From positions 1 to 47,224 of the IMG/VR virus record IMGVR_UViG_2778261507_000009: DNA of 47,224 nucleotides; one strand, 5' to 3'. The position numbers and the translations under genes were made by a program. Below are positions 19,075-42,191 of this stretch, piece by piece. Within the stretch, counting starts at the first letter, position 1; the number at the start of each line of letters is the position of its first letter. The DNA comes from a virus. Its lineage: Duplodnaviria > Heunggongvirae > Uroviricota > Caudoviricetes. The notes beneath the pieces were generated by a model. That model did not search any database, was not told the DNA's origin, and worked only from the letters and a program-made list of their open reading frames with translations.

Positions 19075-19589
19075 GCATAAGAGAACTAAACCTCACCAAA
19101 GAACAGCACGATTGGCTGAATGGCTGGCTTGAACTGTGGGGTGCATGGGTTTACTCAGGTCGCCTGGAAAAGCGCATGAGCAGCGTAATAGCGAAGTTCA
19201 TGGAGAGCGTAGAGCCGGGAAGAGTTATGACAAGGCCAATGTGTAATGATGATGATGGAATGTTGATTTCTCAGGTCGTCGATTCCGTCATGTACATTGA
19301 CAAGAAAGCCTTTGGCATCCTCCTCAGCTACTACGCTCATGGTTCATCTAAGCGAGCAATTGCATCCTACTATCACGCGACTGCAAAGCCACGCAAGATG
19401 TGTGGGCGTGGTGGTGAGGGATGGAGAAAACCTTCACTGGCAACCTGTAGAAATGAAATTGACGACATCCTGAAAGCGTCGTTATTTGTTTTGTACCAAC
19501 CAATGCAAAATGCTTTCAAAATGCGTAAACGTGTTGAGAAAGTTAAGCATGTTGCTGTTAAAAGCCTTGACATGCAATTAGCCATTTAG
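19071..19589 (+). CDS. Late gene antiterminator Q-like protein
   Basis: 172-aa ORF in the Q position between nin/rusA and the lysis cassette; not lambda Q in sequence. Confidence 0.45.
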   Translation: MSIRELNLTKEQHDWLNGWLELWGAWVYSGRLEKRMSSVIAKFMESVEPGRVMTRPMCNDDDGMLISQVVDSVMYIDKKAFGILLSYYAHGSSKRAIASYYHATAKPRKMCGRGGEGWRKPSLATCRNEIDDILKASLFVLYQPMQNAFKMRKRVEKVKHVAVKSLDMQLAI

Positions 19590-19598
19590 CCATAATTA
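19567..19598 (+). promoter_or_regulatory. Candidate late promoter pR' (TTGACA -35, CATAAT -10)
   Basis: Consensus-like -35 and -10 at the 3' end of Q, just upstream of the tR' hairpin. Confidence 0.3.
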
Positions 19599-19607
19599 GA
19601 AGGTAAG

Positions 19608-19648
19608 CTGCCGTTAGTGACTCTTAAGTTGCAACGGTGGCTTTTTTT
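19608..19648 (+). terminator. tR'-like intrinsic terminator
   Basis: Stem CTGCCGTT/AACGGTGG (with wobble pairs) followed by CTTTTTTTG. Confidence 0.5.
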
Positions 19649-19670
19649 GTTTGCACAACAGGTAAGAGCA

Positions 19671-19724
19671 TTGCGCGCCTGACGAGTCCATGAGGGACGA
19701 AACGCATTAGCGTCGCGCGGAGTA
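19671..19724 (+). ncRNA. Hammerhead ribozyme motif (type I topology) in late-operon leader
   Basis: Stem I GCGCG/CGCGC, core CUGACGA, stem II GUCC-AUGAG-GGAC, GAA, stem III ACGC-AUUA-GCGU, cleavage C at 19714; all conserved core nucleotides present. Confidence 0.6.
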
Positions 19725-20185
19725 TCCCCAGCCGGGGAATAACTGGATACCAGGGGAGACAACCCTAAGCGCATTTACGAGTGTGTTTAGGGCGTGGGTC
19801 GGCAATGACTCCCTGTGCAGCCGACATCTGGCCCGGCAACATACAGTGCTCTTTCCGTTGTGCTGAATTAAGCGAATACCGGAAGCAGAACCGGATCACC
19901 AAATGCGTACAGGCGTCATCGCCGCCCAGCAACAGCACAACCCAAACTGAGCCGTAGCCACTGACTATCCTGAATTCATCAGTGATAGTTATGCTGCGGC
20001 CTTCTACACATGACCTTCGTGAAAGTGGGTGGCAAGAGGTTGCGCTAACAACCTCCTGCCGTTTTGCCCGTGCATATCGGTCACGAACAAATCTGATTAC
20101 TAAACACAGTAGCCTGGATTTGTTCTATCAGTAATCGACCTTATTCCTAATTAAATAGAGCAAATCCCCTTATTGGGGGTAAGAC

Positions 20186-21403: not shown

Positions 21404-21839
21404 TAGCGATAATTTTACTCATCATCCTTCACATCTAGCTCTGTAGACAGGGTGATGATCACTTCTGGAGTGAATCCAGATTAAACATCTCATTGCTGAT
21501 GCTTGATATTGAGCATCTGGCGCGCGGTAAGGGGCTGCGTTGAGATAAGAGCCAGTTCATTACAAAGCCTATCTACGGGTGGGCTTGATAATGAAACCGG
21601 AATTTATTCTGGGCAACCAGTTACGGCAGTACAGCGAAACAACCCAAGCCAGTAAGTGGGGAAATAACACTGGCAGCCACTGAAAGATGAACCTCCTGCC
21701 TTATGGCAAAAAAGATTCTTTGTGGTGTCGGACTGATGGAAAGACATCGGATAGAATCAAGCAGTGGCTAGGGTAGCTCCCGAAAAGCGGACTCGTCACC
21801 GCCTGCCACTGAATCTATGGCGAACAACTAGACGAGGTT

Positions 21840-42116: not shown

Positions 42117-42191
42117 TGGTGTCCCCTGCAGGAATCGAACCTGCAATTAGCCCTTAGGAGGGGCTCGTTATATCCATTTAACTAAGAGGAC
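42117..42191 (-). tRNA. argW: tRNA-Arg (anticodon CCU)
   Basis: 75-nt cloverleaf on minus strand, anticodon loop CUCCUAA, T-arm GGTTCGATTCC, 3' CCA; 3' 15 nt duplicated at 1690..1704. Confidence 0.9.

Follow-up and report, generated by a model that had tools for sequence, protein, structure and literature searches.

A type I hammerhead ribozyme at a fixed junction of a conserved double-pseudoknot RNA domain in prophages and phages

The 47,224-nt stretch of DNA analysed here (the window; record IMGVR_UViG_2778261507_000009 of IMG/VR, Caudoviricetes) holds, in the late leader of a lambda-like Escherichia coli prophage, a module of about 168 nt (19674-19841) in which a predicted hammerhead ribozyme is followed by a conserved domain of about 125 nt. 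Judged by the comparison of its copies, the domain appears to be an unannotated RNA family with conservation of riboswitch or ribozyme grade, and it is more conserved than the hammerhead stems. Intergenic hammerheads of phages are already known; what is new, by the standard of Rfam 15 and the searchable literature, is the fixation of a hammerhead at the junction of a double-pseudoknot RNA. The same can be said of the occurrence of this RNA in two permutations, with or without the ribozyme, of its spread over very different phages, and of its tRNA and RtcB neighbourhood. As the best overall explanation we propose, with moderate confidence, that a stable accessory phage RNA has the hammerhead as its built-in processing device.

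In regard to the hammerhead, positions 19674-19719 read CGCGC-CUGACGA-GUCC-AUGAG-GGAC-GAA-ACGC-AUUA-GCGU-C-GCGCG, and the following parts can be distinguished:

19674-19678, plus strand: stem I 5′ strand CGCGC, forming 5 bp with 19715-19719, located by a descriptor
19679-19685, plus strand: core C3-A9, CUGACGA, letters kept across homologs
19686-19689 and 19695-19698, plus strand: stem II, GUCC/GGAC with loop AUGAG, paired and with compensatory changes
19699-19701, plus strand: core G12 A13 A14 (GAA), invariant
19702-19705 and 19710-19713, plus strand: stem III, ACGC/GCGU with loop AUUA, including the A15.1-U16.1 pair, paired
19714-19715, plus strand: cleavage site C17 (19714) / G1.1 (19715), predicted from hammerhead geometry
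19715-19721, plus strand: GCGCGGA, comprising the stem I 3′ strand (19715-19719) and the conserved 5′ leader of the domain

A first-pass annotation of this DNA, made from the letters alone, had placed all of the hammerhead elements at the same coordinates, and its core, helices, A15.1-U16.1 pair and C17 were confirmed by the sequence, as was their position on the strand of late transcription; for stem I the coordinates held, while the two strand strings had been swapped (19674-19678 is CGCGC and 19715-19719 is GCGCG). Stems II and III are closed by loops and stem I is open, which is the type I topology both in the order of the sequence and in the full-length alignment to RF00163. A type I descriptor, demanding the core, at least 4 bp in stem I, at least 3 bp in stems II and III, the A15.1-U16.1 pair and H17, matched the 47-kb window once, at 19674-19719, and was found in none of 400 first-order-Markov random windows, both strands being scanned, in agreement with the earlier statement that a chance match is very unlikely. 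The three-stem shape is also the minimum free energy (MFE) fold of the isolated 58-nt hammerhead, and it is retained in the MFE fold of a 221-nt region (z = -4.3).

A scan with the Rfam hammerhead models, proposed in the first-pass annotation, gave a divided outcome. In a permissive scan of 19560-19960, Hammerhead_1 (RF00163) aligned from end to end with E = 8e-4 on 401 nt; its 24.7 bits fall short of the gathering threshold of 34, and the loss of score was confined to stem I, the sequence of which departs from the model consensus. A hammerhead match at the gathering threshold was absent from the window and from 20 related loci. Since none of the relatives tested reaches the Rfam threshold, standard annotation is blind to this hammerhead lineage, and the earlier suggestion that a covariance-model score in the noise would speak against the ribozyme would wrongly discard it.

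Further evidence comes from homologs. In the phages and E. coli genomes described below, and in viral and metagenomic contigs searched with patterns derived from conserved blocks, 72 distinct copies of the module were collected (loci are given below by our L numbers). From these copies, 38 distinct homologous hammerheads were anchored on the core motifs only, and a stricter parse gave 34. In the 38 hammerheads, 96.3% of the stem cells were paired (72.9% after shuffling, 16-46% when the partners were slid), cells changed on both sides numbered 85 against 25 expected, and the covariation score of 0.603 (against 0.157) was reached by none of 500 shuffles. All three stems covary, stem I doing so across the cleavage site, so the conservation of the stems, on which the first-pass annotation had made its proposal depend, is borne out. 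The core letters are kept in all homologs bar one, where U4 is replaced by C (L204, CCGAUGA), position N7 is free (C, A or U), and A15.1-U16.1 is A-U in 38 of 38. Under the strict parse, H17 is A in 17 hammerheads, C in 16 and U in one, and never G, the window having C19714; stem II occurs in 25 different sequences and stem III in 29, all of them paired. Compensatory changes were found in two of the three outer pairs of stem II. The closing pair of stem I, N2.1-N1.1, is paired in all 38 (CG 23, AU 8, GC 3, UG 2, GU 1, UA 1), stem I being 4-6 bp long among the copies, and loop II varies (AUGAG, ACACG, AGUAACGC and others). On its core and its covarying stems, 19674-19719 is a genuine and complete type I hammerhead, with cleavage predicted between C19714 and G19715.

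The domain that follows was examined in alignment A1, which contains 35 distinct sequences and 93 gapless columns, with helix B omitted and the copies of type B, described below, rotated. Its elements in the window are:

19722-19727 and 19745-19750, plus strand: helix E hairpin, GUAUCC/GGAUAC, 100% paired, 5 variants
in the helix E loop, plus strand: invariant GAAUAACU
19731-19736 (in the helix E loop) and 19832-19837, plus strand: helix D, GCCGGG/CCCGGC, 99.5% paired, compensatory changes in 6 of 6 pairs
19754-19760 and 19807-19813 (inside the helix C loop), plus strand: helix A, GGGAGAC/GACUCCC, compensatory changes in 7 of 7 pairs
19763-19792, plus strand: helix B hairpin CCCUAAGCGC...GUGUUUAGGG, variable in sequence with complementarity kept
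19793-19797, plus strand: CGUGG junction, invariant, columns 48-52 of alignment A1
19798-19803 and 19820-19825, plus strand: helix C, GUCGGC/GCCGAC, 100% paired with 19 variants, in copies selected by a parser that demanded helix C complementarity at 5 or more of 6 positions
19826-19841, plus strand: AUCUGG junction, helix D 3′ strand and AACA tail, the 3′ limit of the shared module

Two pseudoknots are formed in such an arrangement, one by helices E and D and the other by helices A and C. Across all domain pairs, 99.3% of the cells are paired, compared to 75% in shuffles and 31-41% with slid partners; compensatory change was found in 19 of 25 pairs (199 cells), and none of 500 shuffles reached the covariation score. 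The 5′ strand of helix D occurs in 21 variants, that of helix A in 36 distinct sequences with 98% of cells paired, and helix C shows compensatory changes in four of its six pairs, its loop holding a conserved UGCA in addition to the 3′ strand of helix A. Invariant columns number 41 of 93, most of them in the unpaired blocks CGCGGAGUA, GAAUAACUG, UACCAG, CGUGG, UGCA and AUCU. Positions 3-10 of the alignment (GCGGAGUA) are invariant, position 2 is C in at least 90% of the sequences, and this 5′ leader block is conserved also in copies that lack the hammerhead. Homology with the copies of Pectobacterium phages stops at 19841. Concerning the 120 nt after the hammerhead, which the first-pass annotation had described as GC-rich with further hairpins, the B and C hairpins are real, but the segment is not merely GC-rich, being the most conserved and double-pseudoknotted part of the module. 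Nested thermodynamic folding of the cleaved RNA (z = -1.9) misses the pseudoknots supported by covariation and is uninformative for a fold of this kind.

Searches for a known counterpart of the domain were negative. Among the 4,227 models of Rfam 15, none matched the plus strand of 19720-19845 at E ≤ 10; a scan of 20 loci at gathering thresholds, 13 type B copies included, returned nothing except tRNAs, and a permissive Rfam scan of the copy in Arthrobacter phage Constance returned nothing relevant. Literature searches on hammerheads in connection with phage, tRNA, RtcB and circular permutation, and on the conserved strings, brought up no description of the module. Several candidate identities were considered and rejected. 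A second self-cleaving ribozyme in the downstream 125 nt (twister, twister-sister, pistol, hatchet, hepatitis delta virus-like or glmS) has no covariance-model support, and short resemblances to what we take to be glmS motifs (GCGC after the cleavage site, GUGGGU, UGCAG) are not collinear. For a Y RNA or tRNA-like identity, no T-loop-like sequence (GGUUCGAAUCC) was noticed, and ARAGORN and the Rfam tRNA model were silent. The string CGCGGAGUA...UAC.AG at 19716-19753 is also present in the s2m element of coronaviruses and astroviruses; covariation places its GUA in helix E here, while in s2m GAGUA is presumably a loop, and the string match is probably a coincidence.

The domain occurs in two circular permutations. 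In type A (29 copies), to which the window belongs, the hammerhead lies at the 5′ end of the domain. In type B (35 copies), the 3′ half of the domain (CGUGG, helix C, AUCU and the helix D 3′ strand) precedes the hammerhead and runs directly into the 5′ strand of stem I, and the cleavage site is followed only by the 5′ half (helix E with the D strand in its loop, plus the A and B 5′ strands). Helix B, a closed hairpin in the window, is an open terminal helix in type B, with the 5′ and 3′ ends of the RNA paired. As the alignments place it, the hammerhead is at one and the same structural junction in both permutations, where it would yield a 5′ end in type A and an internal nick in type B. Every one of the 72 copies carries no more than one hammerhead, and each locus holds one copy of the module. 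Many type B hammerheads (L024, L089, L147, L174, L189, L204, L224) have in common the stem II loop AGUAACGC or AGUAACGA, the ACGC/ACGA of which complements the GCGU/UCGU that ends in CGUGG, so that a tertiary pseudoknot may be possible.

Furthermore, the full domain is found without a hammerhead in L187/L194, L193, L200, L190 and L176. The junction holds a 3-nt linker in L187 and L193 and other inserts of 20-34 nt in L200 and L190. The existence of such copies marks the domain as an RNA in its own right, to which the ribozyme is accessory. In L176, the hammerhead-less copy is preceded by a truncated remnant, CGUGGUAUCUUGCCCUCAC, which resembles the trace of a tandem duplication and could illustrate a possible route to permutation.

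In the window, the module is enclosed by elements of the lambda late leader:

19567-19596, plus strand: pR′ late promoter (context), HK75 annotation transferred via alignment A2
19606-19648, plus strand: tR′ intrinsic terminator (context), HK75 "Tr′" via alignment A2, hairpin and U-tract visible
19653-19672, plus strand: 5′ arm of the P0 hairpin, GCACAACAGGUAAGAGCAUU, pairing with 19844-19863 in the MFE fold
19844-19863, plus strand: 3′ arm of the P0 hairpin, CAGUGCUCUUUCCGUUGUGC, from the MFE fold, conserved

Lambda (L227), HK75 (L225) and CUS-3 (L226) share the arms GCACAACAGGTAAGAGCATTG and CAGTGCTCTTTCCGTTGTGC, giving a P0 hairpin of about 19 bp, and the interiors are different and unrelated, ranging from about 37 nt (as in lambda) to about 290 nt, with the 168-nt module in the window. 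The P0 arms accompany the module in a T7-like Enterobacter phage, and they covary in L199. We read P0 as a cassette site in the late leader which, in the enterobacterial copies, also belongs to the RNA structure. The spacing reported earlier is right, the U-tract of tR′ ending at 19648, 25 nt before stem I, and alignment A2 confirms the lambda-like flanks, between which a shorter lambda stretch (the interior of about 37 nt) is replaced; of the two interpretations offered by the first-pass annotation, the small ribozyme-bearing insertion agrees with such a cassette. The other one, processing of the late mRNA leader as the purpose of the ribozyme, is not supported in that form, as the module is also found in tRNA arrays, past a T7-like capsid terminator and in varied 5′ untranslated regions (UTRs).

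The module was detected in 15 of 5,426 complete E. coli genomes, at two prophage sites, namely the interval between Q/tR′ and the holin gene in the window prophage and a second site found in a different E. coli strain. Among portal, Gp49-family and terminase genes, L229 (from E. coli 2017.17.01CC), L017, L020 and L213 carry a 95% variant complete with P0 arms, and this different prophage context shows that the cassette has moved between prophage sites. An identical copy is present in E. coli CFSAN061763 (NZ_CP042899.1, near position 1,499,880). The copy in the T7-like Enterobacter phage, situated after the capsid-gene terminator, is 95.6% identical to the window, and copies in Pectobacterium and Dickeya phages are 80% identical, those of Pectobacterium phages lying ahead of tRNA-Met and head genes. 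Pattern searches added 17 matches in viral contigs and 59 metagenome loci, whose contig names suggest marine, soil, groundwater and gut metagenomes. Scans of viral contigs with a 14-mer and a 16-mer (GCGCGGAGTATCCC, GGAATAACTGGATACC) returned mostly chance matches in coding DNA, and the family-pattern scan of species-representative genomes gave no match.

Arthrobacter phages carry the module as well, and a copy is also present in the actinobacteriophage Karkharias, so the family spans phages of Proteobacteria and Actinobacteria. The copy of Arthrobacter phage Constance (L230, 600-900) is a diverged type B copy with the compensatory variant GUCCUC/GAGGAC in helix E. Because this change affects a pair that is invariant in the sample, the family must be wider than the search pattern. 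On both sides of the Constance copy, T-arm-like hairpins (GGUUCGAUUCC, GAGGGUUCAAAUCCCUC) are present that ARAGORN does not call as tRNAs, and the phage record annotates gene 68 over part of the copy.

Wherever it occurs, the module points in the direction of the surrounding transcription. Phage contigs of 80-150 kb hold it within tRNA arrays, and in several type A copies a tRNA begins 126-141 nt past the cleavage site, a few nucleotides beyond the domain. A tRNA on the same strand within 400 nt accompanies 16 of the 72 copies. In a control set of 136 unrelated viral loci (1.17 Mb in total), assembled from the chance 14-/16-mer pattern matches, no locus has a tRNA so near its pseudo-site. In type B copies the RNA begins a few bases past a -10-like box and stops just ahead of a ribosome-binding site (RBS). 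The genes that follow are unrelated to one another, among them those for RtcB, Dam and C5 methylases, HNH endonucleases, RecT and DUF7694; a Pfam scan covered a representative ten of the 237 neighbouring open reading frames (ORFs). A single regulated gene family downstream was ruled out by this diversity. RtcB genes were found at 7 module loci and in none of the control loci; most copies have no rtcB within the stretch of DNA that was available. The seven loci represent four lineages (identities of 100%, 54%, 53% and 42%, relative to the protein of L024). One of these lineages has RtcB immediately after the module and another immediately before it, and at L211 the RNA and rtcB are separated by an ORF that has an HNH-like C-x-x-C-H motif and no Pfam match. 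HNH homing-endonuclease genes adjoin the copies in L172, L195, L198, L211, L024 and L230, and could aid horizontal spread.

In regard to the mechanism, we propose that the hammerhead would cut the late transcript between C19714 and G19715 while transcription proceeds, leaving a 2′,3′-cyclic phosphate on the fragment with the pR′/tR′ leader and a 5′-hydroxyl on G19715. One precise cut or nick point would make the domain portable on any phage transcript. The 3′ end would be supplied by RNase P where a type A copy adjoins a tRNA, and in the enterobacterial copies perhaps by way of the enclosing P0 hairpin, with RNase III as a possible enzyme. Once the RNA is cut, stem I (5 bp) would probably give way to a helix F that we infer between CGCG (19716-19719) and CGUG (19793-19796), which would complete the fold of the domain and disfavour re-ligation. 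Both strings are invariant, the hammerhead-less copies included, and the flanking positions N1 (19715) and N47 (19792), columns 1 and 47 of alignment A1, carry the same nucleotide in 34 of 38 copies, and in all 11 informative copies both are pyrimidines. Covariation by class at N1 and N47 fits a CGCG/CGUG helix that competes with stem I, or else an alternative pairing of the stem I 5′ strand. What the comparisons establish is the motif, placed so that the predicted cut coincides with the first nucleotide of the domain, together with its conservation, the fold, the permutation, the distribution, the lack of a tie to any one gene and the association with tRNA genes and RtcB; cleavage in vivo, helix F, 3′-end formation and the role of the domain are proposals built on them.

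According to this proposal, the module behaves genomically like a phage tRNA gene, that is, as an accessory, horizontally exchanged and late-expressed stable RNA. The neighbouring tRNA arrays and RtcB point, as a lead only, to RNA repair or to a phage-host conflict centred on tRNA, and RtcB joins exactly the type of ends that hammerheads produce. It is possible, although we regard it as doubtful, that the domain belongs to a new class of phage RNA, either catalytic or a partner or substrate of RtcB or tRNA processing, whose activity would depend on the 5′-hydroxyl or nick made by the ribozyme. An example would be a nicked RNA, resealed by RtcB and cut again by the hammerhead, that serves as a sensor, decoy or sink in conflicts involving cleavage of tRNA or rRNA. 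If that were true, this would be the first case in nature of a self-cleaving ribozyme dedicated to maturing or switching another conserved non-coding RNA, and in two permutations.

Several points weigh against a processing device for a stable RNA. Self-cleavage itself rests on sequence inference; the window hammerhead remains under the curated RF00163 threshold (24.7 vs 34 bits), its open stem I is only 5 bp long, and the contact between stem I and loop II that is typical for fast natural hammerheads was not identified, with no covarying partner of loop II found, though such a contact may come from the attached domain. The four pairs of helix F never vary, which makes covariation uninformative for them, and the role of P0 as an RNase III site is a conjecture. 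Hammerhead-less copies show that the domain can do without a free 5′ end at the junction. In type B, cleavage would nick the domain without releasing it, the 3′ piece staying on the downstream mRNA, and this arrangement fits a role in the 5′ UTR at least equally well. The link to RtcB is based on four lineages, and the sample, being pattern-based, under-represents diverged members such as the Constance copy.

The most credible of the rival explanations, although we consider it rather unlikely, treats the module as a device of the mRNA 5′ end, in which the hammerhead removes a leader that is promoter-proximal or carries the terminator, and the domain at the new 5′-hydroxyl end protects or insulates the downstream message, by analogy with synthetic ribozyme insulators and with exoribonuclease-resistant RNAs that block decay dependent on the 5′ end. 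Such a role would agree with type B copies that span from -10-like boxes to the RBS and start codon of many genes, and with type A copies that recurrently follow intrinsic terminators and precede genes (window, L001, L008, L009, L014, L216), in all of which the domain would still be covalently joined to the downstream RNA after cleavage. In E. coli, 5′-hydroxyl RNAs evade the attack by RNase E that is stimulated by a 5′-monophosphate, which would add to the protection. However, in tRNA arrays RNase P severs the downstream RNA a few nucleotides past the domain, copies without a hammerhead exist, and about 40 mostly unpaired invariant positions, kept across phages of very different hosts, exceed what a generic protective hairpin needs. 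The enrichment in tRNA and RtcB would also be left unexplained. Less credible, and in our view improbable, is an allosteric ribozyme in which the domain senses a small molecule, a protein or an RNA end and its folding decides whether stem I forms. Conservation of unpaired positions resembling that of aptamers and the compact pseudoknotted fold, which may be aptamer-like, suit this idea, as do the stem I nucleotides shared with the proposed helix F, the possible pairing of the stem I 5′ strand with the NCGU upstream of CGUGG (compatible in 35 of 38 copies), which would give mutually exclusive structures, and, for type B, the clamping of both stem I strands between helices D and E. Yet the domain persists without the ribozyme, the type A hammerhead is transcribed, and able to cleave, before the domain exists, the genes downstream form no consistent family that could hint at a ligand, and an expression platform is absent. 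Features expected of riboswitches were likewise not found, as no terminator or RBS-sequestering helix follows the domain, the downstream genes are unrelated and many copies precede tRNAs.

Slightly lower still in credibility stands a selfish or mobile RNA similar to retrozymes or viroid-like circles, circularised or religated by the hammerhead together with an RtcB of host or phage and furthering its own spread, for which the permutation would be a footprint of circular or tandem intermediates. The patchy spread over unrelated phages, in which an E. coli prophage copy and that of a T7-like Enterobacter phage are 95.6% identical, the two circular permutations and the possible tandem remnant in L176, the RtcB and HNH homing endonuclease neighbours, and the insertion at the apex of a pre-existing hairpin could all be taken in its favour. 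On the other hand, a single hammerhead per copy does not allow excision of a unit-length RNA, tandem full copies and a nearby reverse transcriptase are absent, with one copy per locus, purifying selection and compensatory evolution indicate a function for the carrier, and recombination at the conserved flanks together with homing endonucleases suffices for the spread. A chance motif or a small protein-coding gene can be regarded as effectively refuted. The former is opposed by the absence of descriptor matches in 400 random windows. For the latter, a "hypothetical protein" of Pappous (CDS0014, L002 3035-3151) and a 62-codon minus-strand ORF of the window (19586-19774) overlap the element, but substitutions track base pairing with no codon pattern, the circular permutation breaks any reading frame, and RefSeq (PGAP) has no feature under the match in the 15 E. 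coli genomes, two inspected regions being likewise blank; both frames are probably artefacts of the conserved sequence.

Compared to known systems, the window element shares the core, the three-helix junction and the open-stem-I topology with type I hammerheads (RF00163, clan CL00010). Bacterial and phage hammerheads were catalogued by Perreault et al. in 2011, with phage intergenic regions as a common context (PMC3088659), and their biological roles have remained obscure since then (PMC3088659, Discussion). The window element and its tested relatives differ from the catalogued ones by falling below the Rfam gathering threshold, by a stem I of 4-6 bp with both strands continuing into a large conserved pseudoknotted RNA, and by their position at a fixed junction of this partner RNA in two permutations; no such partner domain was found in the literature searched. 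The fixed position gives the hammerhead a concrete and testable job, which is to provide a defined 5′-hydroxyl end or a nick, and there is a substantial chance that the partner RNA represents a new functional class.

Likewise, the module resembles phage tRNA genes in being short, co-oriented with late or structural genes, located in or abutting tRNA arrays and exchanged among unrelated phages. In lambdoid phages it fills the Q-S slot, which in Stx phages is occupied by tRNA genes. It differs from phage tRNAs since it is not called by ARAGORN or the Rfam tRNA model, and since its 5′ end would be made by its own ribozyme (a predicted 5′-hydroxyl) instead of RNase P (a 5′-phosphate). The tRNA cluster of T4 also encodes RNAs, "species 1 and 2", that are unexplained. 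Permuted forms are known for self-cleaving ribozymes, in hammerheads as types I, II and III and in twister as types P1, P3 and P5; there, too, one fold has its chain opened differently, which here happens at helix B (type B) or at the stem I junction (type A), but the permuted entity here is a larger host RNA that contains the ribozyme and is not itself known to be catalytic.

Non-coding RNAs linked to RtcB include those of bacterial rsr-Y RNA-rtcBA operons, and the module is similarly a structured non-coding RNA beside rtcB in several lineages, yet without a Ro/Rsr gene and without a noticed T-loop-like sequence. Both tRNA arrays and RtcB are currently linked to phage counter-defence against tRNA-cleaving immunity. 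Retrozymes rely on RtcB for circularisation of their hammerhead-processed RNAs (PMC7229834), and the module differs from them in having one hammerhead per copy and no excisable unit.

Genome pipelines either annotate nothing here or call a spurious ORF across the region. With its location between Q and S in an E. coli prophage of the lambda type, within the late operon that is understood best, the module is unusually easy to test.

Elsewhere in the window, two other RNA elements were recognized. A match to int-alpA RNA (RF02996) lies downstream of the lysis genes, at 21761-21823 on the plus strand, with 45.1 bits against a gathering score of 35.8. At 42120-42191 on the minus strand there is a tRNA gene (Rfam, 63.4 bits) whose anticodon loop CUCCUAA gives the anticodon CCU (Arg), and this gene may mark the attachment site of the prophage.

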